Source: an uncultured Bdellovibrionales bacterium (GTDB lineage Bacteria; Patescibacteriota; Minisyncoccia; Moranbacterales; GWC2-37-73). Taken from it: DNA of 64,000 bases. The position numbers and the translations under genes are program-made. Shown one piece after another: positions 9,200-60,715 of this stretch. Below the pieces are notes generated by a model. It was not told the origin of the DNA, ran no database searches, and saw only the letters and a program-made list of their open reading frames with translations. The stretch is taken from contig CAZSTB010000001.1 in assembly GCA_964609855.1 (NCBI GenBank), forward strand, positions 119,170 through 183,169, read 5' to 3'. Each line of letters opens with the position of its first letter. Positions within the stretch are counted from its first letter, which is position 1.

Positions 9200-9269
9200 T
9201 TTCAATAATATAGCATATACAAAAGACAAACTAAACTTATTGTTTTTTTTGAATATTGACTATTGAATA

Positions 9270-18100: not shown

Positions 18101-18542
18101 CTGGCAGATCTTGTTTGATGGCTGGCAGCTTGTCTCGCAATTTTCTTACGGAATCTTCGACATCCTGATCGGCTTCAAATTCAACGACGACTGTCGAAAA
18201 AGAGTTGGCAGAAGTAGAGGTTAATTTTTTGATACCAGTTATGCCGGAAACATTGGTCTCAATTTTTTTGGTCACCAATTCTTCCACATCAGAAGGAGAA
18301 GCGCCCGGATAAGCTGCGCTCACAATGGCTGTAGGAATTTTTACTTCAGGATTAGATTCAAGTGGGAGTTGTAGGAAAGAGTATATGCCCCAGCCTGAAA
18401 TTAAAATGATGAGCAGAACTACTACTCTAAAGTTTGAGACGAAAAAATTCAGCCAAGTATTTCTTAGTTCAGGTCTGAATTCAAGTTTTTCCAAATATGC
18501 GCCGTCACTCGAGGTGGCATGATTATTATTTTGAGTTTCCAT
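15132..18542 (-). CDS. RND superfamily efflux transporter permease (AcrB/HAE-type, 12 TM, two large periplasmic loops)
   Basis: 1136 aa with duplicated TM bundles and periplasmic domains. Sits with an adaptor and a MarR regulator. Confidence 0.85.
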   Translation of the reverse strand: METQNNNHATSSDGAYLEKLEFRPELRNTWLNFFVSNFRVVVLLIILISGWGIYSFLQLPLESNPEVKIPTAIVSAAYPGASPSDVEELVTKKIETNVSGITGIKKLTSTSANSFSTVVVEFEADQDVEDSVRKLRDKLPAIKQDLPADANEPEVREISLDDTPIVTFALVGPYDGFTLRTYAEKMQDELEKIPGIREVNISGGDQSEFEVAYDPQKLTLFNISADQANSAIALANRAIPAGNFKGSEFNYPVRTDGRFYDAKTLGEIPITHSEQGAVVFLKDIAAVQEKSIEKTLYSRLSIAGNAPENAVTLQIVKRTGGSIIDSVDSAHLKMDEMIKTFPAGIAYDDTVNQADRIRKDFDQLTHDFMLTLILVVGILFLIVGLKEAFVAGIAIPLVFFVTFGVMQATGTSLNFLSIFALLLSLGLLVDDAIVVVSATKQYMKTGKYTPEEAVLLVLNDFKVVLVSTTFATVWAFLPLLMASGMMGQFIKSIPITVSVTLVSSLLIALMINHPLAAVLERIRLTKKFFWLILFSTLLVGLSSVTAHSTLGYIFAAFSFAITTWMIFWYFTNGKITLESNFTLAEKEWDSDELIKQKLLVQGNRKDATLASKLIHGIIHFDQILPVYEKYLRMTTSTKKRRLVTLFSTLALFLFAVALPITGVVKSEFFPAADGDVLYVSLRGPVGLSLDKTDKITNEIENRLLKIENIENFSTIVGNAGSNGGMGGGGANKSNTAAITIKLTATENRSVKAYDIANEIRSALSDIQDATITVSAPRGGPPSGSAFQAQISGENLQTLDKIANDLKPIIDAVEGTINSDISLKDAPAEYTFALDNFKMEMYDLNATAVGSILRTAISGTTVTTVIRDNKDIDVLARFGSDNIPTLDAIANLQILNNKKQPVFIKDVAQIKLTPAVDSISRIDQKRTVLLTADVSGTTNSNEVVKKFQDQMHKNYSLPEGYVISFGGENEQNAESVLSIIRAMAIAALLIISTLVIQFNSFKKAIIVLVTLPLALIGVFLGMALLGVTLSFPGLIGILALFGIVVKNAIILIDKINLNIKTGILFNEAIIDAGKSRLEAIFITSIVTIAGIIPITLSNETWTALGSAVIFGLSISSFFTLFIVPTLYMTFIDENERF

Positions 18543-18591
18543 AAAGGTATCTTTAGTTATTCAGCTTGAGTTATCAGTAAGCTTTTGAAAA

Positions 18592-19698
18592 TTACTTTTT
18601 TAGCTCCACGGTTTCTCCGTCGCGAATTAATTTGTTTCCATCGACAATGATCTGAGTTTGATTAGGGATCGCCGCTGAAACCTCAGCCAATTCGCCGCTT
18701 ACATGCACCACGTCAACAAGAATTTTTTTAGCAACATTATTTTCTAAAACAAAAATATAACTTTCATTTTGACCTATGCCGATTGCGGACAGAGGTAGGA
18801 GGAGATTTTCAGGTTTTTCAACTGTCGCAATACTTTCAATGGTAACGGTAGCGATTGTTCCTGCTAGAAGAGGGGAGTCGGTAGTATTTTTCGGATAGGC
18901 TTCAATCAAAAAACGTTTCGTTATCGGGTCTGCAGCAGAAGCAATATTTCTTACCACTAAAGAATAAGCATTTCCATTGGCAGCAACGGCTGAAACTTCC
19001 TGTCCACGTGTAATTTTCTCTTTTTCAGTTTGATCGACATAGAACTTTACTTTCACATTGAATGATTTGCTGATACTGGCAATCAGTTGTCCGGCGGAAA
19101 CAGAATCCCCAATAGAAACGGCCTTGTTAGTGATGACACCAGAGATAGGACTAGTTATTAAGCGGTTATCCACATTTCCCTCAAGTCCCAAGGCTGCATT
19201 TTCAAATTGTAATTTGGCAATATCTTTCTGCGCCTTGGCGCTATCTTTCTGCGAGTTAGTAGCTTCGCTGGAATCTTTCAGGTTATCGTACAAATCTTTT
19301 GCTAATTCATAAGATTCCTTAGCCTGCTTGGCGGCAATTTCTGATTGCTGAACTTGCAGGCTTTTTAAACCCTGATCTCCAACTGCGATGTTTCCTGTGT
19401 CATCAATTTTTGCCAGAATAGAACCGGCCCTTACTGAATCTCCGATATTTGAGGGTGCGAAAGTGATAGTCCCGGAAGACTTGGCGGTAATTTTTATTTC
19501 CTGGTCGCCAACAATGCTGGCAGGATACTTTCTTGTCTGCGAAAACGTTTTTGTGTCAGAGGCAAGTTTTGCGGAGACTTTTGTGATTTTCTTTTCTGGT
19601 TGACTGGAATCTGTGGCGGCTTTTTGAGGTAGTCGCATCGCGATTATAAAGAGAGCTGCGATTGCTAGTGTAGATGCGATGATTTTTTTCTTGTTCAT
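18592..19698 (-). CDS. Efflux RND periplasmic adaptor subunit (HlyD family)
   Basis: Probable start is Met39 of the listed ORF (MNKKKIIASTLAIAALFII signal anchor), which removes the overlap with marR. Lipoyl/beta-barrel MFP domains present. Confidence 0.8.
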   Translation of the reverse strand: MNKKKIIASTLAIAALFIIAMRLPQKAATDSSQPEKKITKVSAKLASDTKTFSQTRKYPASIVGDQEIKITAKSSGTITFAPSNIGDSVRAGSILAKIDDTGNIAVGDQGLKSLQVQQSEIAAKQAKESYELAKDLYDNLKDSSEATNSQKDSAKAQKDIAKLQFENAALGLEGNVDNRLITSPISGVITNKAVSIGDSVSAGQLIASISKSFNVKVKFYVDQTEKEKITRGQEVSAVAANGNAYSLVVRNIASAADPITKRFLIEAYPKNTTDSPLLAGTIATVTIESIATVEKPENLLLPLSAIGIGQNESYIFVLENNVAKKILVDVVHVSGELAEVSAAIPNQTQIIVDGNKLIRDGETVELKK

Positions 19699-19735
19699 AA
19701 TTTCTTTACTGTAATTTATATTATTTGGCATCGAT

Positions 19736-20140
19736 TTAAAATCTAAATAGTTTTTCCAGTTCGCTTTCGCTGTTGTCCATGATGTCGTTAAGTTTTTGCA
19801 TGAACGCTTCATGCTGGGTTATTTCGTTTTTGCTTAATTTTTTCTCAACCGAAATTTTGGCCTTGGTCATGACTTTACGCATTTCTTTTAATTTCTTCTG
19901 ACCTTGGTCTGTAAGCAGCACTTTTACTTTACGTTTGTCTTTTTTGTCGGTTGCATAATCCCTCGTTATTAATCCTTCTTTTTCTAGAAAACTTAGCCGT
20001 TGGCTGATATTAGACTTGGTGGAATTGCTCAGCTCGATTATTTGACTTGGAGTCAATGATTTGTGATGAGAAAGCATACCCAAGATTTTCACGCTAGTTG
20101 AAGATAGCCCCATTGGGATAAAGATATATTTGTTGGCCAT
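19736..20140 (-). CDS. MarR family transcriptional regulator
   Basis: Winged HTH (LTPSQIIELSNSTKSNISQRLSFLEKEGLITR). Probable start at Met20 of the listed ORF. First gene of the MarR-adaptor-RND operon. Confidence 0.8.
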   Translation of the reverse strand: MANKYIFIPMGLSSTSVKILGMLSHHKSLTPSQIIELSNSTKSNISQRLSFLEKEGLITRDYATDKKDKRKVKVLLTDQGQKKLKEMRKVMTKAKISVEKKLSKNEITQHEAFMQKLNDIMDNSESELEKLFRF

Positions 20141-24145: not shown

Positions 24146-26914
24146 ATGTACGAAGATTTTTTAAGATATTTGAATATTGTATGGTTTTTTGTGCCTTTGG
24201 GCGTAGTGGGAATTTGGAGGTGGTCAATCTGGCTCACAAAAAAGTTGGTAGCGGCATTTTATCGGATGCCATCGGGAGAAATTCTCAAAGCCACCTTGGC
24301 GATAATAACGCCGGTTTATAATGAAAATCCACAAATATTCAAATGCGCCTTGAATTCCTGGAAAATGAATGGATCGCCTGATGAGATTATTGCCGTAATA
24401 GATTTTACAGATGAGGCATGCATTGAAGTGTTTAAAAGTTTTGCAAGAAAAAATCTTAGCGCAAAACTTATCGTCACGAAACTGCCGGGCAAAAGACAAG
24501 CATTAGCGGATGGCATTAGAAATGCAAGCAGCGAATTTGTGGCGCTTGTTGATAGTGACACGCTCTGGATTGATCCAATCAGGGATAAACTGCTGGCGCC
24601 TTTTTCGGATAATTTAGTTGGTGGAGTTTCGCCGCGGCAAGATATTTATCAGCCCAATAGTTTGGCGAGAAAATTATTCCAACTGAATTTATATAATCGG
24701 TATTTCGTTGAGATGCCTTTTTTGGGAGCGGTTGGCGATGCCCTGACTTGCTTGTCTGGCAGAACTGCTGTTTATAGGAAGTCTGCGGTCGAAGATGTGC
24801 TTGACCGACTGGTTGAAGAAAAATTTTTAGGTACGCCGTCGGTAAGCGGCGACGATAAGACATTGACGAGATTGATTCAGCAGGCCGGATGGAAAGCGAA
24901 ATACTTACGCGAAGCAGTGGTTTATACGCCGGGATTTAAGCGTCTTACTCCTTTTCTGCAGCAGATTATTCGTTGGAGTCGAAACAGTTGGCGTAGCGAT
25001 CTGCAAACCGTCTTTGACGGCTGGGTCTGGAAAAACCATAAAGTTCTCGGTTTGTATATGCTCGATAGGTTCCTGCAACCGTTTACATTGCTTTTGTCGC
25101 CGGTTTATTTGGTAGTGGCCCTAAGCTCTGGATATTGGAGATTCGCAGTTATTCTTATTATCTGGTGGCTGTTTAGCAGATCGATAAAAGTTTTTGGTCA
25201 TTTGAAAAAGCATCCAAGAGATATCTTAATCATTACACAGTATGTGATATTCACATTTGTTTCAGCGCTGATAAAAATTTATGCCTTGATAACTATCATG
25301 CAGCAAGGGTGGATTACTCGTTGGGACAAGAGCCGCATGCGAAAAATATCACTGCCGCTTCAATCATTCGCTTATGCGTTCACAGCTTTAATTATCTTTG
25401 CTTATGTGGGCATGATTTTTACATATAGAAATGAATCAAATCAAACTCAAAATTTTGATAATATCGCAATTAAAAGCGTCATTGCGACCGGTCCGAGAGA
25501 ACTTTCCAATTCTCGGCTAGTTGCCATGAAGCAGGATATATTAGCGGGAAGCGTAAATGATTCCAACGGAATTTACGCCGTAAAGTCAGGTGATTTTTTG
25601 CTGCTCTTGAAAAACAAGTTCAATCTAGCTTCCATTGATTTTTTGAAAACTGCAGATAATGAACCAATTGTGAATCCTAATAATATTTCCGTCGGACAAA
25701 AAATCGCCATCCCGTCGAAAGAAATGCGAAATATTTTAAATGCGGATGAGCTTCGCAAAAAGTCATATCGCCCTGCGATAATATTTTATGACAGCGGCTT
25801 GGATACGATATTTATTAAAGGCAGCGGAAGTGTGGTTACACCAACCATAATCAATAAGGCGCTTGGACGAAATTCTTCACTGCAAAAAACAAGCGATGGG
25901 GAATGGCTTTTGAAATCCAATCTTTACATAGGAAAAAATGTTACCTTGGTAATTGATAAACAGGATACGAAATATTTAAAATTAAAAAGTGACAATGAAA
26001 AATTTATCTGGATTCGTTCGCAAAATGGAAACATTCTGATTTCAGATACGAAAGTAACATCTTGGAATGAAAAAACTCAGCAACCAGATGACGAGCATAT
26101 TGATGGTAGAAGTTACATAACGGCTAAATCCAGCGGACGAATGGATATAACTAATTCTGAAATCGGACATTTGGGATATGTGGGTCTGCCGAAAAGAGGA
26201 GGACCGTTTGGCGGCTCATATGGGTTGTCTTGGAAAATAACCAGCGGAAAATTCAAGGACAATTTACTGACAGGTTCAGTCATGAACAGTTCGATTCATG
26301 ATAATTATTTCGGAATCTACTCTTTCGGCGCAACTGGGATTCTAATAAAAAATAACGATGTATTTCATAATGTGGAATACGGAATCGACCCACATGATGA
26401 TTCCAATAATTTTTTGATTACAGAAAATAGGACATACGAAAATGGAAATCATGGCATTATTCTTTCCAAGCGGTGTGTTAATAACGAAATTACAAATAAT
26501 ATTTCTTATAATAACAAGCTGCACGGAATAATGCTTGATCGGGATTCTAATAATAATTATGTGATTGGGAATGAGGTTTATGGAAATATTGACGGGATAA
26601 CTGTTTTCGAATCCGAACGAAATTTCATATTTGAGAATAAAATTGCTGATAACAAGCAAGGCATTCGACTCAATGGTGGTTCGGAATTTAACTATATCGA
26701 AAAAAATAATATTAGGAATAATGAAACGGGCATGCATGTGTATGGCGGCTCGAATAATAACGTAGCACTTAATAACAGTATTGTATCGAATAAAATAGGC
26801 TTATCTATTCAAAATTCGAACGGGAATATTTTTTATGGCAACTTTAAGCCGCATGACAATGAAAAAGATGGACACATAAATGTTGAATTAATCAGAAATG
26901 AAATTAAATTATAA
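24146..26914 (+). CDS. Processive family-2 glycosyltransferase (HasA/NodC/chitin-synthase-like) fused to a LysM domain and a right-handed parallel beta-helix domain
   Basis: ITPVYNE, DSDT, LSGRTAVYRK, SGDDKTLTR and QQIIRWSRNSW (QxxRW) motifs. About 6 TM helices. LysM (YAVKSGDFLLLL...VGQKIAIP). More than 10 ~22-residue NxxxxN beta-helix coils (NNxIxxN...GIxL). Confidence 0.7.
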   Translation: MYEDFLRYLNIVWFFVPLGVVGIWRWSIWLTKKLVAAFYRMPSGEILKATLAIITPVYNENPQIFKCALNSWKMNGSPDEIIAVIDFTDEACIEVFKSFARKNLSAKLIVTKLPGKRQALADGIRNASSEFVALVDSDTLWIDPIRDKLLAPFSDNLVGGVSPRQDIYQPNSLARKLFQLNLYNRYFVEMPFLGAVGDALTCLSGRTAVYRKSAVEDVLDRLVEEKFLGTPSVSGDDKTLTRLIQQAGWKAKYLREAVVYTPGFKRLTPFLQQIIRWSRNSWRSDLQTVFDGWVWKNHKVLGLYMLDRFLQPFTLLLSPVYLVVALSSGYWRFAVILIIWWLFSRSIKVFGHLKKHPRDILIITQYVIFTFVSALIKIYALITIMQQGWITRWDKSRMRKISLPLQSFAYAFTALIIFAYVGMIFTYRNESNQTQNFDNIAIKSVIATGPRELSNSRLVAMKQDILAGSVNDSNGIYAVKSGDFLLLLKNKFNLASIDFLKTADNEPIVNPNNISVGQKIAIPSKEMRNILNADELRKKSYRPAIIFYDSGLDTIFIKGSGSVVTPTIINKALGRNSSLQKTSDGEWLLKSNLYIGKNVTLVIDKQDTKYLKLKSDNEKFIWIRSQNGNILISDTKVTSWNEKTQQPDDEHIDGRSYITAKSSGRMDITNSEIGHLGYVGLPKRGGPFGGSYGLSWKITSGKFKDNLLTGSVMNSSIHDNYFGIYSFGATGILIKNNDVFHNVEYGIDPHDDSNNFLITENRTYENGNHGIILSKRCVNNEITNNISYNNKLHGIMLDRDSNNNYVIGNEVYGNIDGITVFESERNFIFENKIADNKQGIRLNGGSEFNYIEKNNIRNNETGMHVYGGSNNNVALNNSIVSNKIGLSIQNSNGNIFYGNFKPHDNEKDGHINVELIRNEIKL

Positions 26915-28184
26915 AAAAATTATAATATTTTTGATGCTTATACTCTTGGCAACATTTTTTCTGTCAAAGTTTTTTAGAAATGGTGAAGGCGCGGAAGCAA
27001 CTATACTTGTAGATGACACGGATGATGTTAAAGGTCTAGGTTATTCAGGTCAACAAAAAATCGTGCAAGATTCTAACGGAAATTTCTTCGTAACCTACAG
27101 AAAAAAATATCAGGGCAGGTATGAAATATTTGTTGCTAGAATATATTTGAAAGACCAAAATTGGAAAGTATCAGGTACAGAAAAACCGGTAGCATTGGTA
27201 GGGTCAAAAGCTGATCAGCGTGTGCCTTCAATCAATATTGGTACCGACGGAGTCTTGTATGTGGTTTGGTACGGAAGCGATGCGAATGAAAAAAACCAGG
27301 TAAATAATCGACAGATAAAGTTTGTAAAGTCTGCTGATAGAGGAAATACCTGGTCGTCAGCAAAAAACATTTCCCATGTTGACGGCTATGAGAGCAGTCA
27401 AGCTTATTGGCAGGAACATCCGTATATTTTAGTCGGCAAGAATAATAATTTATATGTAACTTGGGAAGGAAAGGACCGCGAAAATTCCAATCAACAAATA
27501 AAATTTTCAAAGTCAACTGATGGAGGTGAATCGTGGTCAGACTGGAAAAATATTTCTCCGGCAAAAGATAATACGCAATCGCGACCAACGCTCGTAATTG
27601 ATAGCAGTAAAAGATTACATTTATTTTTCTACTCTTCCCAATTAAATCAGCAAGATAACCAACAAATTAATTATTCCTGGTCTGATGATGGAGGCGATTC
27701 CTGGAGCCCATTTGTGGCTCTTTCCCCAGAGGATGTTGATGCGCGGCATGTAACTGCAGCAGGGATATCTGACAGCGTGCATATTGCTTGGCGGCAATGG
27801 GATTTAAAAGGAGAAGCTAGAATAATGTATAAAAAACTAAGTAAGGGAAATTGGCAAGCTGCAGAGATAGTTAGTAATGATGGAGAAAATCAATTTTTCC
27901 CTTCGATATCTGCAGGTAGTGTTGGAAATGTAGTTATTGGTTGGATGGAAACAGAAGATTCATTCAGTTTGCCTAGGGAGGATCCTGATAGTGGAAAAAT
28001 ATACGCAGCAGTTTTACGCGGAAATTCATTCGGCAAGCGAATAAAAATTGCAACTGATGGAGAAAATTTATACGCCAATTTCCCTCAGAATAATGAAAAT
28101 AAGCATTTTACACCTTTAATTTTTGAGTCGGCAGCTTCTTCTGCTGGCGGATATAGCATAATTTTTAAATACTTAAAATTGTAG
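26898..28184 (+). CDS. BNR/Asp-box repeat beta-propeller protein (sialidase-like fold), N-terminally anchored
   Basis: Asp-box repeats SADRGNTWS, STDGGESWS, SDDGGDSWS. 17 bp overlap with the upstream synthase gene. Confidence 0.7.
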   Translation: MKLNYKKIIIFLMLILLATFFLSKFFRNGEGAEATILVDDTDDVKGLGYSGQQKIVQDSNGNFFVTYRKKYQGRYEIFVARIYLKDQNWKVSGTEKPVALVGSKADQRVPSINIGTDGVLYVVWYGSDANEKNQVNNRQIKFVKSADRGNTWSSAKNISHVDGYESSQAYWQEHPYILVGKNNNLYVTWEGKDRENSNQQIKFSKSTDGGESWSDWKNISPAKDNTQSRPTLVIDSSKRLHLFFYSSQLNQQDNQQINYSWSDDGGDSWSPFVALSPEDVDARHVTAAGISDSVHIAWRQWDLKGEARIMYKKLSKGNWQAAEIVSNDGENQFFPSISAGSVGNVVIGWMETEDSFSLPREDPDSGKIYAAVLRGNSFGKRIKIATDGENLYANFPQNNENKHFTPLIFESAASSAGGYSIIFKYLKL

Positions 28185-51190: not shown

Positions 51191-52132
51191 ATGTCTTGGA
51201 TTTTTTTAGCTACAACTTCATACTTCTTTGGGGCATTAACGATTATCTTGGATAAGTATCTTTTACGTTCGGAAAAAATTTCCTCCCCCCCTATTTATGC
51301 CTTTTATGTTGGTCTAGCTGGGATGGGCGTGCTTGCATTTTCACCGCTAGCTTTTTTTTATCCTCAATTTGCATTGAAAATCATTTCTGGATATGAATTT
51401 TTGCTGGCGCTTGTCTCAGGTATCTTATTTTTGGCATCTATAACCGCGATGTATTTTGCGATTAAAAAATCTGAAGCCAGTAGGGTCACGCCTGTTGTTT
51501 ATTCAATTATCCCCCTGGTAACCCTCTCATTGTCTTGGATTATGGGTACGGAGATTTTTTCCGGGCAAAATATTTTCGGTATCGCACTTCTGATCGCAGG
51601 TGGCTTGCTTGTTTCTTTTGACTTGCCGCTTAAGCTAAAAAAGAAAAAATTCTTTGCAGGTTTTTATCTTTCTATTTTTTCTGGAATTCTAATGGGAATC
51701 TCGCTTCTTACGCTCAAGGAGATTTATCTACACCAAAGTTTTTTTAATGGTTTTGTCTGGTCACGTGGCGGAGCTTTGATTGGGTCCTTATTATTACTTC
51801 TGCACCCCTTGTGGCGCAAGGGGATAAGCAAGAGTTTTACTCACGCGCATAAAAATAAGCAAGAAAATCTTAAAACTGGAGGATTATTCGCTCTCAATAA
51901 ACTCTTGGGCGGTTCAAGCTCGGCCTTGATAAATCTTGCAATTGGTGCTGGCAGCGTCACACTGATTAGCTCCCTGATATCGATTCAATATGTTTTTGTT
52001 TTAATCATCGCAATTTTAGCAGGAAGACGGCTGCCACATATTTTTGAAGAAAGAATGCATTTTTGGGATTGGGCACAGAAAGTCATGGCCATTTTTATTA
52101 TAGCAGTCGGCATGTTCTACATTTTTAAATAA
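51191..52132 (+). CDS. EamA/DMT-family transporter (10 TM)
   Basis: Duplicated 5-TM EamA halves. Confidence 0.65.
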   Translation: MSWIFLATTSYFFGALTIILDKYLLRSEKISSPPIYAFYVGLAGMGVLAFSPLAFFYPQFALKIISGYEFLLALVSGILFLASITAMYFAIKKSEASRVTPVVYSIIPLVTLSLSWIMGTEIFSGQNIFGIALLIAGGLLVSFDLPLKLKKKKFFAGFYLSIFSGILMGISLLTLKEIYLHQSFFNGFVWSRGGALIGSLLLLLHPLWRKGISKSFTHAHKNKQENLKTGGLFALNKLLGGSSSALINLAIGAGSVTLISSLISIQYVFVLIIAILAGRRLPHIFEERMHFWDWAQKVMAIFIIAVGMFYIFK

Positions 52133-53203
52133 ATGTACTCTAAATCTAAATCTAAATCTAAAATAATTATGGATCCAAGTAAAAAGCTGGCTGATTTTGG
52201 AAAAAAAACCATGCAAATCCTACTATACATTTTCGGAAGCCTTTTAGTGCTGGTGATTATTTTTTTTATCTGGATTAATTTACCAGTAAGCGCTAGAAAA
52301 GAGAATGTCAAAGTCGGTGTTACCTTCTCGAATATTTATGCTGAGCAAATCGGACTTGATTGGCGTCAGGTATATCTTGCTATGCTTAGTGAGCTTAATA
52401 TTAAGGATATCAGACTTCCGGTTTATTGGGATCGAGTGGAGACGGGTCCTGGCCAGTATGATTTTACAGATTTGGATTGGCAACTGCAGCAAGCTCAAGC
52501 GCATGGAGCAAGGGTGATTCTAGTTATTGGCGAAAAAGTTCCAAGATGGCCGGAATGCTATGTTCCTAAATGGGTAGGAGTCGATGAAAAAGATCTTACT
52601 GGAAAATTATTGGCCTTTGAAGTTGAAGTGATAAACAGGTATAAGGATGGACATCCGGAGATAATTCATTGGCAGGTTGAAAACGAGCCATTTTTAGGAT
52701 TTGGAATCTGCGGTGAAGTTGATCCGGCAAGACTTGATGCTGAAATTGCTCAAACGCGCAGACTTGATTCATCTCGTTCTATAATAGTTACTGATAGTGG
52801 GGAACTTAGTCTTTGGATAAAGGCAGCTTCGCGAGCTGACATCTTTGGTACTACTATGTATCGCGAAGTTTACAGCGCGGAAATGGGTCACTGGCGTTAT
52901 CCTATTGGGCCAAATTTTTTCAAGGCCAAACAGTTGTTGATTAGAATTTTTGCAAAACAAAAAAATGCGATTGTAATTGAACTTCAAGGTGAGCCATGGG
53001 TAAAGGGATGGACTGTGGATGCACCTGTTGATGTTCAGCTTGCTTCAATGAACTCTTCCATTCTTATGGATAATGTGGAATTTGCCAAAAAAACAGGAAT
53101 GGACGAAATCTATGTTTGGGGCGTCGAGTGGTGGTATTGGATGAAAACAAATCAAAATAACGCGACACTTTGGGAGACTGCAAAGAGTTTTAATGAAAAA
53201 TAA
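52133..53203 (+). CDS. Membrane-anchored glycoside hydrolase, clan GH-A TIM-barrel (family not assignable by eye)
   Basis: VENEP catalytic acid/base motif. W..VE..PG.YDF..LD pattern common to GH-A (GH5/GH42-like). N-terminus contains an SKSKSKSK tandem (tctaaa repeated four times). Confidence 0.5.
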   Translation: MYSKSKSKSKIIMDPSKKLADFGKKTMQILLYIFGSLLVLVIIFFIWINLPVSARKENVKVGVTFSNIYAEQIGLDWRQVYLAMLSELNIKDIRLPVYWDRVETGPGQYDFTDLDWQLQQAQAHGARVILVIGEKVPRWPECYVPKWVGVDEKDLTGKLLAFEVEVINRYKDGHPEIIHWQVENEPFLGFGICGEVDPARLDAEIAQTRRLDSSRSIIVTDSGELSLWIKAASRADIFGTTMYREVYSAEMGHWRYPIGPNFFKAKQLLIRIFAKQKNAIVIELQGEPWVKGWTVDAPVDVQLASMNSSILMDNVEFAKKTGMDEIYVWGVEWWYWMKTNQNNATLWETAKSFNEK

Positions 53204-53245
53204 AATCCCTGTAAATTTCGACCAAATCGGCAAGACAAATACGAA

Positions 53246-54394
53246 ATGCAAGCATACATTCCTCATAGAAATAAAAAGCACTCGTGGCGGACAGCAATCT
53301 TTGTTGTTTTTATGGTGCTTATTTCTGCGGCGGTGACATATTCCGTGAAAGCATATTCTCAAAATCTTAAAACCGTGGCGACACTTGAAAAGTCATTAGT
53401 TGATGAATTCACTTCTGGTTTAGTTTTGAATTTTTCAATTCCCGTTAATCAAGCTAGCGTTGAAAAAAAATTGACTTTAATGCCCACACAAAAAATCATT
53501 ATGCGGTGGGAGAATAGCAGTCGGCTTATAATTTTGCCTGTAGAGAGTTGGAGAAATCAAGTAGAATACAGAATAAATCTGGAGGGGGAGAATATCTTTT
53601 TTCAAAGTTTTACGCAAGAATTAAATTTTAAGACACGCTCTTTTCCAATGATCCAGGAAACTTTCCCGCAAGACGGCCAAAGAGACGTTTCGGTAGATAT
53701 CGAGCAACCTATAAAAATAAAGTTCAATGCTTCTCTGGAAGATTTCAATGTGAATTTTAAGGTAAATCCTCGCACTTCATTGACTTGGCAATTAAATGAA
53801 GAAAAAACCGAGGTGAGCTTATTGGCTACTGATGACTTTTCTTGGGACACGCAATATTCAATAGCTGTAATGATCAAGCATAAAAAGCAGACAGATAATG
53901 AATATGTGAAAACGAAGCAAATAACTTTCCGCACGGCGAAAAAGCCTCAACTTGAAGCTTGGGAGTCTAATCCCTTGCTTCGAGTAGAGCAGGCAAAGAA
54001 GTTTGCAGTCGCAAGAATTAAAGCTGGAAAATATATTGATATTGATCTAGTTCATCAAGTGATGGTAATTTTTGAAGATGGAAAAGCGCTCGATTCCTTT
54101 ATGATTTCTTCGGGAAAAAAAGGGATGGAAACTCCACAAGGTGAATTTTCAATTCAAAACAAGCACCCTCGTGCATGGTCCAGGAAGTATGCTCTTTTTA
54201 TGCCTAATTGGATGGCGATAGTTCCCTCTGGGGAATATGGTATCCATGAACTTCCAGAGTGGCCAGGCGGGTATAAGGAGGGCGCAGATCATCTTGGCAA
54301 GCCAGTCTCGCATGGTTGTGTGCGACTTGGTGAGGATAGTGCTGAAAAAGTATATGCCTGGACTGAAACTGGAACACCGGTCGTGATTCACTAA
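53246..54394 (+). CDS. L,D-transpeptidase (YkuD domain) with N-terminal Ig-like domains
   Basis: C-terminal catalytic SHGCVRL motif. Membrane anchor. Confidence 0.8.
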   Translation: MQAYIPHRNKKHSWRTAIFVVFMVLISAAVTYSVKAYSQNLKTVATLEKSLVDEFTSGLVLNFSIPVNQASVEKKLTLMPTQKIIMRWENSSRLIILPVESWRNQVEYRINLEGENIFFQSFTQELNFKTRSFPMIQETFPQDGQRDVSVDIEQPIKIKFNASLEDFNVNFKVNPRTSLTWQLNEEKTEVSLLATDDFSWDTQYSIAVMIKHKKQTDNEYVKTKQITFRTAKKPQLEAWESNPLLRVEQAKKFAVARIKAGKYIDIDLVHQVMVIFEDGKALDSFMISSGKKGMETPQGEFSIQNKHPRAWSRKYALFMPNWMAIVPSGEYGIHELPEWPGGYKEGADHLGKPVSHGCVRLGEDSAEKVYAWTETGTPVVIH

Positions 54395-54525
54395 TGGATA
54401 TATTTTTGCTATAATGAAAGAAGAATGTAGACTTTTTCTATGGGCGTCATTGTTTTTGCTGAAAAGCAAATTTGGGAGATAGGAATTTTCATTGCATTTT
54501 TCTTCACTAAAAATAAAATATAAAA

Positions 54526-56169
54526 ATGAAAAATTTTAAAAAGAATAGTTTTGTTTTTTTTGGCATTATTTTTTTTACAGCTGCAAGCGTATTTATTGCT
54601 ACGAATCTTCTTGCGCAAACCCAAGCTGGAATTGATTTTGATACTACAGCTTCTGCTTCGGTTTGCGGTAGTGCTAATGGCGGTGCGTTTAGTGAGCCTC
54701 CAAAGGCTGAAACATTATGTTTGAACGGAACAGCTAAGCCTGATATTCCAGGCTTTGCTAATAATCAATGGCTTTGGTATTGTTCAAATGCGATTGCAAC
54801 GGTTAAATGCGGAGCAAGCTTTTTAATCCCAGCTTCCAAGCAAATAATCAATGGTGCCTGCGGCTTAAATAGTAGTGATGCTGTGAGGATAGCGCCAAGT
54901 GGCGCAGCTCTTTGTGCTGCCGGAACCAGTGGCGAGGTAAAAACTACTTCAGAAGGTTGGAGCTGGTTTTGTTTGGGCGCGAACGGTGGAGATAATGCAC
55001 AGTGTCAGATAAAGAAAAGTGTAACGATTACGCAGGTTGTTACAAACGGAGAGTGCGGAGCTTCAAATGGTAAAACTTTTTCAACGGCTCCTGCGAGTGG
55101 ACTTTGTTTGAGAGGAGCTGCTACGAATGTTTTAAATATAGGTGATAAATGGAATTGGAAATGCGAGGGAATAAATGGAGGTGCGGTTGCAAATTGTGCC
55201 GCTGGTAAGACAGCTTCCATAACATCATCTACGACAAATCCAAGTACTGCAACTTCCAAGACGGAAACCACGCCTACATATCAATCAGGCTCCTTTACGC
55301 AAAGTAGTCCAGTTGTGGAAGAAAAAAATATCTCCGAAGAGCAAGTTTCCGCGTCTACATCCAATGTTGTCAAAGAAGATGTTGGAGAAGTTATTTGTGG
55401 CGCAGCAAACGGCTGGTCATTTGAAAATGTTCCATCCGACAACACTTTTTGCATGAATGGATTCATGACTGATTTTAAAACGCTTAGTAATGGCTGGGCA
55501 TGGAAATGTACAGTTTCTGGTAAAGAAGTTCAATGTGGGGCAGGAAAAACGGCACAGTTGCAGAATTTTTCAAGGGAGATTTCAGTTCAGCAGCAGCAAG
55601 TCAGTCAAAAAATAATATTAGAAAGTTTGGAAAAAGTTCAGCCTGCGGTACCTGAAGTGCGCGATGGAAAATCTTTTGAAAGTCCTAAGCAAGCAGGGGA
55701 GATTGATTGGGAACTTAAAGTGGAGCATGTCGGGATGGTGGAGCAGGCGGGCGCTAAGAAAGTTGCGCTTGTTGGAAAGGCGCAGCCGGAAACTTTCATC
55801 ACTATTTTTGTGTATAGCGAAGATCCTGTAGTGATCACTGTTAAAGCAGATAAGGATGGAAACTGGCATTACGCTCTAGATAAAGAGTTAGCGGATGGGG
55901 AACATGAGGTTTATGTTGCGGTTACCGATGAGGAGGGAAAAGTAATGAAGAAAAGTGAACCGCTTGCATTTGTTAAGACGGCACAAGCAGCTACTGCCAT
56001 TGCTAGCGAGAGAATTGGTAATATCGAAAATAATAAATCACCATTGCAACGAGCTGGACAAAGTTTTTTAGCGGTAGGAGTTGTCATTATAATGGTGTTT
56101 TTCGCACTAGCTCTGACATTGATTGGCGTTTTAACTCATAAGCATAACGGAGATGAAGAAATTTCTTAA
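54526..56169 (+). CDS. Surface protein with four tandem ~55 aa 4-Cys modules, Ser/Thr-rich linker, Ig-like domain and C-terminal TM anchor
   Basis: Signal peptide. Repeats CG(S/A)xNGxxF...P...LC..G...............W.W.C.G.NGG....C occur four times. Final TM VGVVIIMVFFALALTLIGVL. Confidence 0.6.
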   Translation: MKNFKKNSFVFFGIIFFTAASVFIATNLLAQTQAGIDFDTTASASVCGSANGGAFSEPPKAETLCLNGTAKPDIPGFANNQWLWYCSNAIATVKCGASFLIPASKQIINGACGLNSSDAVRIAPSGAALCAAGTSGEVKTTSEGWSWFCLGANGGDNAQCQIKKSVTITQVVTNGECGASNGKTFSTAPASGLCLRGAATNVLNIGDKWNWKCEGINGGAVANCAAGKTASITSSTTNPSTATSKTETTPTYQSGSFTQSSPVVEEKNISEEQVSASTSNVVKEDVGEVICGAANGWSFENVPSDNTFCMNGFMTDFKTLSNGWAWKCTVSGKEVQCGAGKTAQLQNFSREISVQQQQVSQKIILESLEKVQPAVPEVRDGKSFESPKQAGEIDWELKVEHVGMVEQAGAKKVALVGKAQPETFITIFVYSEDPVVITVKADKDGNWHYALDKELADGEHEVYVAVTDEEGKVMKKSEPLAFVKTAQAATAIASERIGNIENNKSPLQRAGQSFLAVGVVIIMVFFALALTLIGVLTHKHNGDEEIS

Positions 56170-57529
56170 AAGAGGCATTGAATTTGTTAGCAAGAATCCC
56201 ACCATTATATCTTCACTGATACTTATTTTTGTTGTTGTTTCCGCAATTTTTTTGAATTCTTTTTTTACATTAAACAAATTTCAGGAAAATTTAGATACAA
56301 CTCTTAGGACAAAAGCAGTTTTAGCTGAGAATGTTTTAGGAATTGCGGCCGATAAATATTTTTCAGATATCAAAAATAATGCGCCTGAGCTGGAAACAAA
56401 AATAAATGCCATTCGTCAACAAAGTTCTGAAGTTTCAGAAATAACGATTTATGTTTTTAATGATGAGAAAAAAGATTTTGTGCCGCTTATCTCTACTGAA
56501 CATAATGAAAACAATCCAACTTCTTCTGAGACGGATTTGGTTGCGCAAAATGCGCGCAAATTTGCAGGATCAGTGAATGACGCTTTTGCATATGTGAGTA
56601 ATTTCGAAGGAGAGCGTTTTTGGAATGTAGTTAAGGCGCTGCGGTTGCCTGACGGGAATGTTGCAGGAATTTTATCAATGAAATTTTCTTTAGCTAAATC
56701 GGATGAATTAGTAAGAGAAACGATCCTGCGGGTTTATGCACTTTCGGTTGGCGCTGTAATTGTGGTACTACTTTTGATGTTGAATCATATCAGACTTTTT
56801 ACTTTTGAAATTAAAGCAAAAAAACTGGAAGAGATTGATAAAATGAAAGATGATTTCATTTCTATGGCTTCCCATGAGCTTAAAAGTCCGTTAACGGCAA
56901 TCAGCGGATATACGGATTTACTTGTGGATACAATTTCCTGTGAATCCGAAAAAGCAGTTGCACTGCAGCAACGGAAATATTTAGATAACATAAATATTTC
57001 CGTAGATAGGCTTAAGACATTGGTGGAAGATTTATTGGTGGTTTCCAGAATCGAACAAAATAGGTTGCCTGTTGAATGTGTGAACATGAACGCTACAAAT
57101 ATTGCTGGACAAATTATTGATGAAATGAAAGTTACCTCAGATCAGAAAGGGCTATTGCTTAAAAAATCTCTATCCGAGGTTTCGAATGTCTTGGCTGACC
57201 CTGAACGAGTTAAACAGATCATGGTAAACCTACTTAGTAATGCGATAAAATACACTGAAAAAGGTACAGTGGAAATTATTTCAAAGGAGGATGCGGAAGC
57301 GGTTTATATAACCGTCGCTGACACAGGCATGGGTATTTCGGCAGAAAATATGCAACAGCTTTTTTCCAAGTTCTATCGCGTGAAAAACTCCCAGACAATG
57401 CAAATTTCCGGAACTGGACTTGGTCTTTGGATTGCGCGTGAAATTGCCCAAAAGATGGGCGGAAATCTTACTGTGGAGAGTATTGAAGGCGTGGGGTCGC
57501 ATTTCACCCTTAAATTGAAAAAAAATTAA
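56153..57529 (+). CDS. Sensor histidine kinase (2 TM with extracytoplasmic sensor; HisKA + HATPase_c), no cognate response regulator in window
   Basis: H-box SHELKSPLTAISGY. N box LLSNAIKYT, G1 DTGMGI, G2 GTGLGLWIA. 17 bp overlap with the upstream gene. Confidence 0.85.
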   Translation: MKKFLKRGIEFVSKNPTIISSLILIFVVVSAIFLNSFFTLNKFQENLDTTLRTKAVLAENVLGIAADKYFSDIKNNAPELETKINAIRQQSSEVSEITIYVFNDEKKDFVPLISTEHNENNPTSSETDLVAQNARKFAGSVNDAFAYVSNFEGERFWNVVKALRLPDGNVAGILSMKFSLAKSDELVRETILRVYALSVGAVIVVLLLMLNHIRLFTFEIKAKKLEEIDKMKDDFISMASHELKSPLTAISGYTDLLVDTISCESEKAVALQQRKYLDNINISVDRLKTLVEDLLVVSRIEQNRLPVECVNMNATNIAGQIIDEMKVTSDQKGLLLKKSLSEVSNVLADPERVKQIMVNLLSNAIKYTEKGTVEIISKEDAEAVYITVADTGMGISAENMQQLFSKFYRVKNSQTMQISGTGLGLWIAREIAQKMGGNLTVESIEGVGSHFTLKLKKN

Positions 57530-57633: not shown

Positions 57634-58344
57634 ATGAATAAACAACAAAAAATAGCAATCTTTGATATTGATGGAACAATTTTTCGCAAAAATCTACAGT
57701 TTGAACTGATTAATGAAATGTCATGGATGGATATTTTTCCGCGCAAAGTCAGAGACCAAATCGTCACCTTATACACGAACTGGATTGAGCATAAGGGTAC
57801 ATATGAGCAATATAGGGCAGGGCTGGTGGATTTATATGAGAAATATATTTGCGGTTGTAGGCTTACTGATGTGCAGCGAGCCAGTAAGGCTGTTGTTTCC
57901 TTTCATCAAGATAGGACTTATGTTTTTGCAGAAAAGATTATTTCCAAGCTTAGAAAAGAGGGCTATCATTTGATTGCGATTTCTGGTTCGCCGATTGAAA
58001 TTGTACGCGAATATGACGTTAAGCATCTTAAATTCGATGCTGTCTTTGGCAGCGTATACGACATCGATGCCAAAGGAAAGTATACCGGCAAGACTGATTA
58101 CGAACCAGTGCAGCATAAGGGCGCTCTTGTAAAGCAATATGTTTACGAGCATGATTTAACGCTTGAAGACTCTTACGGCATGGGTGATACTGAATCTGAT
58201 GCTAGTTTTTTGGAGCTTGTGGCTAATCCGATTGCTTTCAATCCTAACGAGAATCTTAGAGCAATTGCAGAAGCCAAGGGATGGAGAATAGTTGTGGAAA
58301 AGAAAGATGTCATTTATGATATGACTAGCTGCGTATTAATATGA
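57634..58344 (+). CDS. HAD-superfamily hydrolase (HAD-IB/phosphoserine-phosphatase-like)
   Basis: IFDIDGTIF motif I, ISGS motif II, GDTESD motif IV. Confidence 0.75.
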   Translation: MNKQQKIAIFDIDGTIFRKNLQFELINEMSWMDIFPRKVRDQIVTLYTNWIEHKGTYEQYRAGLVDLYEKYICGCRLTDVQRASKAVVSFHQDRTYVFAEKIISKLRKEGYHLIAISGSPIEIVREYDVKHLKFDAVFGSVYDIDAKGKYTGKTDYEPVQHKGALVKQYVYEHDLTLEDSYGMGDTESDASFLELVANPIAFNPNENLRAIAEAKGWRIVVEKKDVIYDMTSCVLI

Positions 58345-58778: not shown

Positions 58779-60035
58779 GTGAAAAATATGTTAGGCAAAA
58801 TAAAAAATTTCTTCAAAGACCATTATCACATCCTTTTCAAATCTGCAGCAGTCAATCACTTGCGTATTCAGGAAATCTTGAAAAGCCCTGATGGGACATA
58901 TAATCTGACTGTAAAGTTCGGATCATATTCCGAGCTTAAAAAATATCAGCGAAAAATGAGAAGGCTCACGATCAGTCTTTCTTCAGCAGTGGCGATGGTT
59001 GTCGTGGCTCTTGTTGTTGCGCCCTATGTCATGAATCCAAACAGATCAAGCGCTTCAAATTTTTTGTGGACGCAGAATTCCTGGACCACACAATCTAACG
59101 CTGCCAAAACTTATCCTTCTAATGGAGGGGTTGAATATGTTTCAAAAACTACCAACATTGATTTGACTGGCGGAAAAATAGCCATGGCAACTCCAACCGT
59201 GGCGAGTACGGGTGATTCGAGTTATTCAACTGCACCGGACGGATTTTATCTGGATGGCAGCGCCCGCGTTTTGAAAAAAGTTCAAGGTGCGACATGTGGA
59301 GGTGTTGGAGAATGTAAATCAGGACTTTGCACAAATGGAACTTGTTGCAATGATGCTTGCTGCGGAGTTTCTTCCATTACGGATAATCGCGATACTAATA
59401 ATCCGACTTATGAAACTGTCGCACTTGGAACACAATGTTGGCTGAAAAGAAATTTGAATGTAGGAACGATGATAGGTTCGAAATTAGCTGACAATGTGAC
59501 CTATCAAAATCAAGCAAACAACTCCATTGTTGAAAAATATTGCTTTAATTATGTCAAACAAGGGGATGCAACTCAAATAGCTACGGGAAACAGTAATTGC
59601 GCATCGTACGGAGGACTTTATCAATGGCCCGAGGCAAACGCTTTGTCTGCCAGTTGCATTTCGACAAGTTGCGCTGTGCCAAGTCCGAATCAGGGGATCT
59701 GTCCCGCTGGTTGGCATGTTCCGACGGATGCGGAAATTAAAACTTTGGAAATGCATTTTGGTATGTCTCAGACAGATGCTGATGGAACTGGTTGGCGAGG
59801 AACGGTGTCTGCCTCATTTAGGACTGGGCTTAATATTTTATCTGCAGCTGGGTATTTCAGCCAGTCAAGCATGGCTTTTTCTAATAATGGTGGTACGAAT
59901 ACAGGGTTAGCAACCGCTACTGAAAATAGCACAACTACTGCATGGTATCGCGAGCTTAATAGCTCTCTTGCCGGTATACAACGTGGTATTCCATCAAAAA
60001 TATCAGCGTATCCATTAAGGTGTGTCAAGAATTAG
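58779..60035 (+). CDS. Secreted protein with Cys-rich segment and C-terminal FISUMP-type domain (Fibrobacter succinogenes major paralogous domain, TIGR02145-like)
   Basis: CPAGWHVPTDAEIKTLE and terminal YPLRCVKN fit the FISUMP signature. CGGVGECKSGLCTNGTCCNDACCG cluster. N-terminal TM/signal. Confidence 0.55.
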   Translation: MKNMLGKIKNFFKDHYHILFKSAAVNHLRIQEILKSPDGTYNLTVKFGSYSELKKYQRKMRRLTISLSSAVAMVVVALVVAPYVMNPNRSSASNFLWTQNSWTTQSNAAKTYPSNGGVEYVSKTTNIDLTGGKIAMATPTVASTGDSSYSTAPDGFYLDGSARVLKKVQGATCGGVGECKSGLCTNGTCCNDACCGVSSITDNRDTNNPTYETVALGTQCWLKRNLNVGTMIGSKLADNVTYQNQANNSIVEKYCFNYVKQGDATQIATGNSNCASYGGLYQWPEANALSASCISTSCAVPSPNQGICPAGWHVPTDAEIKTLEMHFGMSQTDADGTGWRGTVSASFRTGLNILSAAGYFSQSSMAFSNNGGTNTGLATATENSTTTAWYRELNSSLAGIQRGIPSKISAYPLRCVKN

Positions 60036-60358: not shown

Positions 60359-60715
60359 ATGAATTATGATTTAGAAAATAGAACAAGAAAATTCAGTAAA
60401 GAAATTATTGGATTCTTAAAGCGTTTGAAGAAAGATGATATCAATAAAAGTATGGTTTCTCAGCTAGTAAGGTCTGCAACTAGTGTGGGAGCTAACTATT
60501 GCGAGGCAAATGGTGCAAGCTCCAAGAAAGACTTCAAAAACAAAATATTTATCTGCAGAAAAGAAATTCAGGAAACTAAATACTGGCTTGAACTCATAGC
60601 TGAATCGAATGATGAAGAAAAGGAAAATCTGAAAATTCTTTGGAAAGAAGCTCATGAGCTGACATTAATTTTTAATAAGATATCCTCAACCCTAAATAGT
60701 GAATTGAAAAATTGA
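60359..60715 (+). CDS. Four-helix-bundle protein (TIGR02436 / 23S rRNA intervening-sequence protein family; bAvd-like)
   Basis: QLVRSATSVGANYCEANGASSKKDFKNKIFICRKEIQETKYWLELI matches the family core (QLxRSxxSIgaNIAEG...F..k..ia.kE..ET.yWL.l). Confidence 0.7.
   Translation: MNYDLENRTRKFSKEIIGFLKRLKKDDINKSMVSQLVRSATSVGANYCEANGASSKKDFKNKIFICRKEIQETKYWLELIAESNDEEKENLKILWKEAHELTLIFNKISSTLNSELKN

Follow-up and report, generated by a model that had tools for sequence, protein, structure and literature searches.

A predicted signalling pair formed by a four-cysteine-module surface protein and the histidine kinase encoded by an overlapping gene

Analysis of a 64-kb stretch of DNA (64,000 nucleotides, hereafter the window) from the genome of an uncultured member of the Moranbacteria (Patescibacteria/CPR) indicates that a gene encoding a surface protein, here designated X, and the gene encoding a histidine kinase, HK, that overlaps it are a conserved, translationally coupled signalling pair. 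Judging from the sequences compared, the pairing belongs to the base of X, made up of an Ig-like domain and a transmembrane (TM) helix, and not to the cysteine (Cys) modules of the protein. That the pairing is conserved via this base rather than via the Cys modules suggests an accessory-protein-assisted signalling system, one that appears to be previously undescribed. The features of the locus, with the basis for each assignment, are as follows:

51191 to 54394, + strand: upstream block, syntenic in Moranbacteria (Pfam and locus comparison)
51191 to 52132, + strand: EamA transporter
52133 to 53203, + strand: cellulase-like glycoside hydrolase
53246 to 54394, + strand: Big_5 and YkuD L,D-transpeptidase
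54387 to 54415, + strand: candidate sigma-70-like promoter in the YkuD/X spacer, TTCACT-17-TATAAT with TG (10/12 match, best of the region)
54526 to 56169, + strand: gene X, 547-aa type I membrane surface protein (ORF list, Pfam, Cys count, hydropathy)
54526 to 54615, + strand: signal peptide of X, aa 1-30, hydrophobic core aa 6-32 (Kyte-Doolittle)
54655 to 54819, + strand: Cys module 1, aa 44-98; C47, C65, C86, C95 (independent profile, i-E 1e-6)
54850 to 55014, + strand: Cys module 2, aa 109-163; C112, C130, C149, C160 (i-E 3e-13)
55045 to 55206, + strand: Cys module 3, aa 174-227; C177, C194, C213, C224 (i-E 6e-18)
55207 to 55386, + strand: Ser/Thr-rich linker joining modules 3 and 4, aa 228-287, 38% S+T (composition)
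55387 to 55545, + strand: Cys module 4, aa 288-340; C291, C309, C328, C337 (i-E 5e-7)
55663 to 56166, + strand: C-terminal base of the X family, aa 380-547, NPK-like start; the part adjoining HK (ortholog conservation)
55765 to 55968, + strand: Big_13 Ig-like domain of X, aa 414-481 (Pfam)
55957 to 55995, + strand: invariant EPxxFVKTAQAAT motif of the base, aa 478-490 (ortholog alignment)
56065 to 56136, + strand: TM helix of X with conserved ALxLIG, aa 514-537 (hydropathy and alignment)
56153 to 56169, + strand: 17-nt overlap of the HK start (ATG 56153) and the X stop (TAA 56167-56169) (ORF coordinates)
56153 to 57529, + strand: sensor histidine kinase HK, 458 aa (ORF, Pfam, hydropathy)
57634 to 58344, + strand: downstream HAD-family hydrolase, syntenic in Moranbacteria (Pfam and locus comparison)

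Both reading frames and their overlap had been described in an earlier note on this DNA, and they exist as described there. Within X, the order of elements is signal peptide, four Cys modules with linkers, Big_13, juxtamembrane motif, TM anchor and short cytoplasmic tail; hydropathy and Pfam agree with the signal peptide, Ig-like domain and C-terminal TM segment that had been proposed, and the signal peptide is probably cleaved after A30 (NLLA30). The four proposed modules are likewise recovered: the 16 cysteines of X fall into four groups of four, and an independent profile matches each of them. Module 1 is the most divergent copy and lacks the G-x-NGG turn, while module 3 is the most canonical and is the copy used for the structure model. 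The Ser/Thr stalk, which had been placed after all four modules, actually separates module 3 from module 4; what comes after module 4 is a Q/E-rich linker (aa 341-379). Big_13 and Big_6 are the sole Pfam domains matched in X at E<=0.1; Big_13 (PF19077) scores 37.6 bits against a gathering threshold of 27 (E 3.4e-9) and is present in all X orthologues examined. Residues A529, I533 and G534 within the TM helix are conserved, and a charged tail of mixed sign, HKHNGDEEIS, lies past the helix. Anchoring by sortase was considered and rejected, as there is no LPXTG, FVKTAQAAT stops 23 residues before the TM helix and the tail carries charges of both signs. Cleavage of the signal-peptidase type at the invariant AQA-AT was also rejected, the motif being too distant from the TM helix and on its wrong side.

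The two-TM histidine kinase that had been claimed to follow X is confirmed, with TM1 at aa ~17-38, an extracytoplasmic domain at aa ~40-190 (nt 56270-56722) and TM2 at aa ~191-213. HisKA (PF00512, 64.0 bits against a cutoff of 26.9, aa 231-302) contains H241 within SHELKSPLT, conserved in 39 orthologues, and HATPase_c (PF02518, 97.8 bits against a cutoff of 26.4, aa 349-457) retains conserved DTGMGIS and GTGLGL boxes; by these two domains, HK classifies as a class I two-component sensor kinase. Pfam places neither a HAMP nor a cytoplasmic PAS domain in HK, in which TM2 ends at ~aa 213 and HisKA begins at aa 231. Against the NCBIfam model HK_WalK (NF033092), HK reaches 176.8 bits where the cutoff is 725, the alignment being confined to the catalytic core (aa 226-455). 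The sensor domain is predicted, with medium confidence, to adopt a PDC/sCache-like fold, its best fold match being the extracellular domain of WalK; the model was built on 12 sequences because homology searches with the HK N-terminus yielded no more than 6 and 17 proteins, most of them partial. From the WalK comparison structure 4ywz only the coordinates were used, the describing paper being marked as retracted (PMC4802049). Few residues of the HK sensor are invariant across orthologues, so that no fixed surface for docking is evident.

Conservation of the pairing was assessed in both directions. Among 56 loci from GTDB species, found via X C-terminal motifs, HK lies immediately 3' of X in 48 of the 55 that could be evaluated, the gap being -26 to +25 nt except at one locus, where it is 150 nt, and an X-like protein occurs without a kinase in seven loci. 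Conversely, when metagenome loci were gathered with the HK sensor domain only, an X base was found directly 5' of HK in 68 of 73 evaluable cases (gaps -26 to +95 nt), the five exceptions being the most distant kinases. Retention of the overlap in orthologues had been proposed as a check, and the identical 17-nt overlap is seen again in many orthologous loci. Orthologues at 31-34% identity keep EamA, glycoside hydrolase, YkuD, X, HK and HAD in synteny (X/HK overlaps of 17, 17 and 4 nt), and adjacency of X and HK holds at 25-35% identity across differing flanks, whether the Moranbacteria synteny or uvrB/uvrA. The portion of the X family that is conserved is the C-terminal ~170 aa, comprising Ig-like domain, juxtamembrane motif and TM helix. 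Cys modules are present in 8/56 species-level orthologues and 12/68 metagenomic ones, or about 15%, the remainder having TSP3, Big_7, fn3, RGI-lyase-like or other heads with the kinase kept. The pairing of the kinase with this gene, put forward in the earlier note, is thus strongly supported, but a tie of the kinase to the Cys modules is not. In 39 pairs, distances between X bases correlate with those between HK sensors when the HK catalytic core is controlled for (partial Mantel r = 0.45, reached by 0/5000 permutations; reverse partial r = 0.03), although the p-distances are non-independent and partly saturated, and shared rate variation of two fast-evolving extracytoplasmic regions might itself correlate.

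The window holds no receiver domain detectable by tblastn with six queries (CheY, PhoB, Spo0F and three response regulators (RRs) from related loci), as had been claimed. Designation of the kinase as an orphan is therefore correct locally but not for its relatives, in which a single-domain receiver is retained ~5 kb downstream (L003, L010-L013, L029) or a receiver gene lies directly upstream of X in the order RR-X-HK (L052, L053, L059). The 64-kb window also lacks the L20/L35/IF3/SmpB block that lies ahead of the RR in relatives. In Kaiserbacteria, Nomurabacteria and Paceibacteria the loci read uvrB-RR-X-HK-uvrA, a self-contained three-gene cassette, and the Kaiserbacteria and Nomurabacteria cassette lacks both the HAD hydrolase gene and the cell-wall neighbour genes. 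Regarding transcription, sigma-70-like sites in the region are not above chance, so the site in the YkuD/X spacer is only a candidate. Tight linkage of the X and HK genes is also compatible with mere co-expression.

We consider it probable that X, with its exchangeable head, serves as a co-sensor alongside HK in a three-component system. As proposed, X would be exported, lose its signal peptide and remain tethered through its C-terminal TM helix, and its base may dock on HK via the extracytoplasmic PDC domain and/or the TM helices, a physical contact for which the partial Mantel correlation and the conserved TM residues of X are indirect evidence. The membrane-distal head, swapped between lineages and here composed of four Cys modules with flexible linkers, may bind an extracellular ligand or surface; binding or mechanical load would then alter the contact between X and HK and shift the balance of kinase and phosphatase activity, in a direction that we can only infer. 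The recipient of the signal from HK would be a receiver protein whose gene lies elsewhere in the genome.

Control of a histidine kinase by an accessory protein has precedent in QseG-QseE (PMC12691602). In that system and in LuxP-LuxQ, an extracytoplasmic partner protein docks on the kinase sensor domain. QseG, however, is a lipoprotein of the outer membrane, and LuxP is a soluble binding protein of the periplasm; both lack a TM anchor, an Ig-like base and a variable repeat head, and neither is related to X in sequence. A membrane-bound third component is encoded beside the HK and RR genes in LiaF-LiaS and VraT-VraS (PMC3543457; bioRxiv 10.1101/2025.01.23.634444), and in CbrX-CbrA translation of the kinase is coupled to that of a small ORF upstream of it (PMC6591292). 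Neither LiaF nor VraT, which are polytopic or face the cell interior, has the large extracellular adhesin-like parts of X, and CbrX is a small peptide, unlike the 547-aa X. Conserved co-encoding, a criterion for accessory systems of histidine kinases, is observed here in the 48/55 and 68/73 loci and in the RR-X-HK order of L052, L053 and L059. In Bacillota, YycH and YycI are single-pass proteins with large extracellular parts that are encoded in the same operon as WalK (YycG) and control it, probably via TM helices (PMC7355866). The X-HK pair has in common with that system a context of cell-wall enzymes and, by model, a PDC-type sensor, but HK is missing the HAMP and cytoplasmic PAS domains of WalK. 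X itself has a C-terminal anchor (type I) and a cleavable signal peptide where YycH and YycI are anchored N-terminally, and its gene lies upstream of and overlaps that of HK whereas yycHI lie downstream of walK. X has an Ig-like base with an exchangeable head and no Pfam match to YycH or YycI, and the RRs of its relatives are stand-alone or double receivers, in contrast to the OmpR-type WalR.

These differences bear on a reading in which X is an envelope reporter or negative regulator in a WalK-like wall-homeostasis circuit, setting kinase activity only through YycH/YycI-like TM contacts; the kinase would monitor the state of the peptidoglycan or envelope, and the head would be a wall-spanning spacer and no ligand binder. 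The fold match of the sensor, the adjoining L,D-transpeptidase and glycoside hydrolase, and the conserved residues of the X TM helix, given that YycH and YycI work on WalK through TM helices, are all consistent with such a circuit. We nevertheless regard it as improbable: HK falls far short of the WalK cutoff and is without HAMP and cytoplasmic PAS, the Kaiserbacteria and Nomurabacteria cassette travels without cell-wall neighbours, and a spacer role leaves the strong diversification of heads unexplained. The same envelope-related neighbours (EamA, glycoside hydrolase, L,D-transpeptidase), together with Ig-like, TSP3 and repeat heads that are typical adhesin parts and the seven X-like genes without kinase, could indicate that X is an adhesin or structural envelope protein that merely shares an operon with HK, whether as a target of regulation or through an accident of history, with no interaction between the two. 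This is unlikely in view of the two-way adjacency at low identity with different flanks, the recurrent start/stop overlap, the co-variation of the X base with the HK extracellular domain specifically and not with the catalytic core, and the conserved residues within the X TM helix.

A further reading, closest to that of the earlier note, takes the four-Cys modules themselves as the sensory element, with the kinase sensing, or being regulated specifically through, the modules. They are indeed the sole recognisable membrane-distal domains of X in this locus, and the closest relatives of X (L002, L003, L006, L007, L009-L012) also have 1-3 copies each. Yet the pairing survives without them in the many orthologues with unrelated heads, and module-bearing proteins elsewhere (RCC1, YVTN propeller, OmpA and PPC architectures) had no coupled membrane kinase in the four contexts sampled, all of proteins unrelated to X, so that we give this reading little credence.

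CPR/Patescibacteria depend on other cells and have tiny genomes in which signalling systems are very few. To our knowledge, next to nothing has been established about how they sense a host or the environment around them, and a search of the literature for kinase-surface protein pairs of CPR/Moranbacteria found nothing relevant. A kinase coupled in nearly all loci to a surface protein whose base is conserved and whose adhesin-like head is specific to the lineage is a concrete candidate for a CPR perception device. An extension of the co-sensor model, which we advance tentatively and consider rather doubtful, is that X and HK, with an RR where present, form a receptor by which Parcubacteria-type CPR episymbionts sense contact or adhesion and that the Cys module represents a new disulfide-stabilised fold family. 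Were the former true, the lineage-specific head (here the four Cys modules) would bind a ligand on a host cell or environmental surface, the Ig/TM base would relay occupancy or tension to the WalK-like PDC kinase, and the kinase would switch the envelope and attachment programme of the symbiont; were the latter true, thousands of bacterial surface proteins would use the fold.

The Cys module is a widespread extracellular repeat absent from curated families. A profile built from 34 modules of unrelated proteins, with the window and the orthologues left out, matches the four copies in X and nothing further in the six-frame translation of the window; the repeats are thus real and not a product of chance. 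In X, Cys1 to Cys4 span 47-49 aa, and modules 1-3 repeat with a period of 65 aa. The motif proposed earlier was idealised, as NGG occurs in modules 2 and 3 only, CG(S/A)xNG is missing from module 2, and invariant in all four copies are only C1-G, P, C2-x2-G, W-x-W-x-C3 and C4. In the wider family the consensus is NGxCGxANGxxxxxxPxxxLCSxGTxSxVxxxGxxWxWxCxGxNGGxxAxCSA. Whether a known domain would be matched had been raised as a check, and none was: at the permissive thresholds of E<=10 or E<=1, no Pfam or NCBIfam family, small Cys-rich domains such as EGF, Sushi, FN1 and lectin-type ones included, matched the window modules or canonical modules of P0026, P0051, P0052, P0054, P0062, P0064 and P0105, and a PDB profile search gave 0 matches at E<=10. 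Comparison of the modelled fold with the PDB returned no solved structural relative, tblastn gave no match in plasmids or phages, and literature searches with motif strings gave unrelated primer or letter matches only. EGF, Sushi/CCP, FN1 and the Myxococcus Cys-rich repeat resemble the module in having ~50 aa and four conserved cysteines and in being beta-rich tandem repeats of secreted or surface proteins, but the signature C-G...P...C-x2-G...W-x-W-x-C...C is unlike any of theirs.

An AlphaFold2 model of module 3 (pLDDT 96.4) has four beta-strands, and the module is small and beta-rich and probably disulfide-stabilised. Disulfides may form between its cysteines, and our guess at their pattern, C1-C2/C3-C4, is based on the variable C1-C2 loop (7-17 aa, P0046/P0048 versus canonical) and on the position of C3 and C4 in adjacent strands of the model. 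Large Cys-rich extracellular proteins have been reported in CPR genomes (PMC4736985). The module had been termed novel, which is apt in that no curated family covers it, but it is very common: at E<=1e-3 the full profile matches 5,762 cluster representatives, a number that falls to 3,211 at E<=1e-10. With more than 5,700 protein clusters, a high-confidence model and no Pfam/NCBIfam entry, it merits curation. Its spread covers CPR and Proteobacteria, architectures outside the X family include RCC1, YVTN propeller, OmpA and PPC, and a single protein may carry up to 45 copies.

Examination of the sequence bore out the two-gene arrangement claimed in the earlier note, in which X, a surface protein, overlaps by 17 nt HK, a two-TM sensor histidine kinase; the ORF coordinates match, and the signal segment, four groups of four cysteines, Ig-like domain and C-terminal TM of X are all present. 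The features of the pair are as follows:

54526-56169, + strand: X, ORF of 547 aa
56167-56169, + strand: TAA stop of X, 17 nt past the HK ATG at 56153
X aa 6-32: hydrophobic N-terminal signal segment, cleavage probable after A30
X aa 228-287: Ser/Thr-rich stretch between modules 3 and 4
X aa 341-379: Q/E-rich linker after module 4
X aa 414-481: Big_13 Ig-like domain (Pfam, 37.6 bits against a cutoff of 27)
X aa 478-490 (55957-55995, + strand): invariant juxtamembrane motif EPxxFVKTA(Q/E)AAT, ~23 aa ahead of the TM
X aa 514-537 (56065-56136, + strand): C-terminal TM helix, then the tail HKHNGDEEIS
56153-57529, + strand: HK, ORF of 458 aa
HK aa ~17-38 and ~191-213: TM1 and TM2, enclosing an extracytoplasmic domain of ~150 aa
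HK aa 231-302 and 349-457: HisKA (H241) and HATPase_c

X contains exactly 16 cysteines, four in each of its four Cys modules, with C1 to C4 spanning 47-49 aa in every copy. Constant across the copies are C1-G, one P, C2-x2-G, W-x-W-x-C3 and C4; the motif proposed earlier holds for the cysteines but was over-idealised in its written consensus, 'NGG' occurring only in modules 2 and 3, and the Ser/Thr-rich stalk, formerly placed after all four modules, actually separates modules 3 and 4. An identical X protein is on record in an NCBI contig and a Logan assembly.

The pairing of X with HK is conserved when approached from either gene. In three loci from other genomes, L002 (Rifle ACD data), L003 and L004, the order EamA, glycoside hydrolase, YkuD, X, HK, HAD is kept, with orthologues at 31-34% identity and X/HK overlaps of 17, 4 and 17 nt, respectively. 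Scanning the conserved motifs of X against one genome per GTDB species returned 56 loci, and a homologous kinase lies directly downstream in 48 of the 55 that were evaluable, at gaps of -26 to +25 nt plus one of 150 nt; the exceptions include second paralogues (L016/L028, L025/L014), where the other copy in the genome has the kinase, and non-CPR bins. In the reverse direction, the HK N-terminal region alone (profile A4) was scanned against metagenome contigs, yielding 80 loci, 73 of them evaluable (600 nt or more available upstream), and the base of X lies directly upstream of the kinase in 68 (gaps of -26 to +95 nt). The five exceptions, kinases at 25-28% identity, are the most divergent of the set, and an HMM found no X in them. 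The closest loci come from MAGs of Moranbacteria/Moraniibacteriota, within the Parcubacteria group (Patescibacteria/CPR).

Alignment of 20 homologues places the conserved core of the family in this base, the C-terminal ~170 aa comprising the Ig-like domain, EPxxFVKTAQAAT, SP and the TM helix, within which A529, I533 and G534 are invariant in 20/20; the N-terminal part of X is not alignable across the family. The juxtamembrane motif or the TM residues could serve as a docking or processing site. Cys modules occur in 8/56 forward and 12/68 reverse orthologues, in 1-3 copies each, the four of X being the highest count, and heads without them carry TSP3 calcium-binding repeats, Big_7, fn3, an RGI-lyase-like beta-sheet domain or other Cys-rich segments. 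No coupled membrane kinase was found beside four module-rich proteins unrelated to X. Since modules are rare among orthologues and the four unrelated carriers lack a coupled kinase, the pairing belongs to the base and not to the modules; the kinase pairing suggested in the earlier note is thus conserved, but through a different part of X.

Consistent with co-adaptation of the two extracytoplasmic parts, though with shared rate heterogeneity and saturation as caveats, distances among 39 X/HK pairs correlate between the X base and the HK extracytoplasmic domain (r 0.74). The partial r is 0.45 with the HK catalytic core controlled, a value reached by 0/5000 label permutations, and 0.03 for base versus catalytic core given the sensor. 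An AlphaFold2 model of that sensor, built on 12 aligned sequences and of medium confidence (pLDDT 74.6), shows a PDC fold: a long helix continuous with TM1 is followed by a second one, a pair of strands, another helix, three further strands and a last helix that leads into TM2. Its top fold match is the WalK extracellular domain, PDB 4ywz; as the paper on that structure (PMC4802049) is flagged as retracted, the fold comparison alone was used. HK was rejected as a WalK orthologue, since its NF033092 score of 176.8 bits falls short of the 725 cutoff, and a domain scan found neither HAMP nor PAS between TM2 and HisKA.

The absence of a nearby response regulator (RR) likewise held: tblastn with CheY, PhoB, Spo0F and three receivers from related loci found no receiver domain in the 64-kb window. 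Elsewhere, two arrangements include one:

L052 (Kaiserbacteria) 5196-9925, L053 (Nomurabacteria) 5253-9945, L059 (Paceibacteria locus) ~5180-9925: RR-X-HK cassette, a 268-aa protein with a C-terminal receiver directly upstream of X
L003 9419-9808, also L010, L011, L012, L013 and L029: 129-aa single-domain receiver in six Moranbacteria loci, ~5 kb downstream of HK, past L20/L35/IF3/SmpB

The former is a self-contained three-gene cassette in a neighbourhood unrelated to the Moranbacteria one, wedged between uvrB (ahead of the RR) and uvrA (after HK) in L052 and L053; its RR has an N-terminal half resembling a second, degenerate receiver. The 129-aa protein is a candidate cognate RR; both it and the L20/L35/IF3/SmpB block are missing from the window, so here the receiver probably lies elsewhere on the contig.

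Taken together, these data make it fairly probable that X is an accessory protein or co-sensor of HK. X would be a type I membrane protein whose Ig/juxtamembrane/TM base contacts the HK PDC domain and/or TM helices, while the head, exchangeable and set apart by linkers, would point away from the cell and recognise a ligand or surface particular to the lineage; occupancy of or load on the head would alter the X-HK contact and so change kinase output to the receiver protein. The anatomy, the conservation seen from either gene, the overlap, the varying heads, the specific co-variation, the RR-X-HK order and the PDC fold are observed, whereas we infer the contact, the ligand binding, the sign of regulation and the disulfides. 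That X is an adhesin merely co-resident with HK in an operon seems unlikely, its base co-varying specifically with the sensor. Somewhat less likely still is an envelope-homeostasis circuit like that of WalK and YycHI, with the head only a spacer, which has the fold match on its side and the failed WalK assignment set against it. Equally improbable, as a general statement, is the sensing through the modules proposed in the earlier note, given their scarcity among orthologues, although in this lineage ligand binding could well fall to the Cys modules.

Functionally, the nearest known systems are WalK-YycH/YycI (PMC7355866), QseG-QseE (PMC12691602, PMC6075780), LuxP-LuxQ, LiaF-LiaS/VraT-VraS and, in translational coupling, CbrX-CbrA (PMC6591292), none of which shares the architecture, topology or sequence of X. 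Nothing describing the X-HK pair or the Cys module was found in the searchable literature. We regard X-HK as a probable two-component system assisted by an accessory protein, a modular co-sensor that swaps heads and is confined to Parcubacteria-type CPR, and the module as an uncurated new domain family accompanying it. While the accessory-protein principle is unsurprising, X-HK is a specific candidate, open to testing, for the means by which CPR cells sense their surroundings.

The module itself, called novel in the earlier note, proved undescribed but not unique to X. Profile searches with the repeats matched no known domain: neither Pfam nor NCBIfam matched the modules of X or canonical copies taken from elsewhere, with thresholds as loose as E<=10 or E<=1, and a profile of 50 modules (A3) found zero PDB sequences at E<=10. 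Among 1.84 billion cluster representatives, A3 matched 5,762 proteins at E<=1e-3, of which 3,211 pass E<=1e-10 and 796 pass E<=1e-30, with up to 45 copies per protein. A profile from 34 modules of unrelated proteins matched the four copies of X (i-E 1e-6 to 6e-18) and nothing further in the window. Carriers include Paceibacterota and Alpha- and Gammaproteobacteria MAGs, all named ones being 'hypothetical protein', and partner domains include RCC1, YVTN beta-propeller, OmpA and PPC. Module 3 is modelled by AlphaFold2 as compact and four-stranded (mean pLDDT 96.4). The Cys module is thus a genuine extracellular repeat that is widespread yet uncurated and has no relative of solved structure, and is worth curating and solving; its four invariant cysteines and extracellular location suggest two disulfides per module. 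In two Paceibacterota MAGs, proteins consisting almost entirely of the module (L142 4001-7432, 19 copies; L143 3517-5547, 11 copies; no Pfam domain) directly follow dnaA-dnaN.

The window (G+C ~38%) has nearly all genes on the + strand across 1-64000, a monotonically climbing cumulative GC skew and no tRNA genes. Its sole sizeable minus-strand block (15132-19812) encodes an AcrB-type RND transporter (1136 aa) and an HlyD-type adaptor, unusual in a CPR cell, which is thought to lack an outer membrane. At 24146-28184 (+), the gene for a 922-aa fusion of a GT2 glycosyltransferase with a right-handed beta-helix/NosD-like domain shares 17 nt with the gene of a BNR-repeat protein, an overlap as long as that of X/HK. 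Just downstream of the cassette, the product of 58779-60035 (+) combines a FISUMP (Fib_succ_major) domain with an N-terminal TM and, separately, a Cys-rich stretch, CGGVGECKSGLCTNGTCCNDACCG. A small member of the '23S rRNA-intervening sequence protein' family (PF05635) is encoded at 60359-60715 (+). Moranbacteria-type genes also occur in GTDB 'uncultured Bdellovibrionales' records (L008, L009, L015, L019, L021, L031, L037, L040, L044, L061), the titles of which are probably mislabelled; L008, L009, L019, L021 and L031 display full Moranbacteria synteny at 45-70% identity to the window's neighbour genes.
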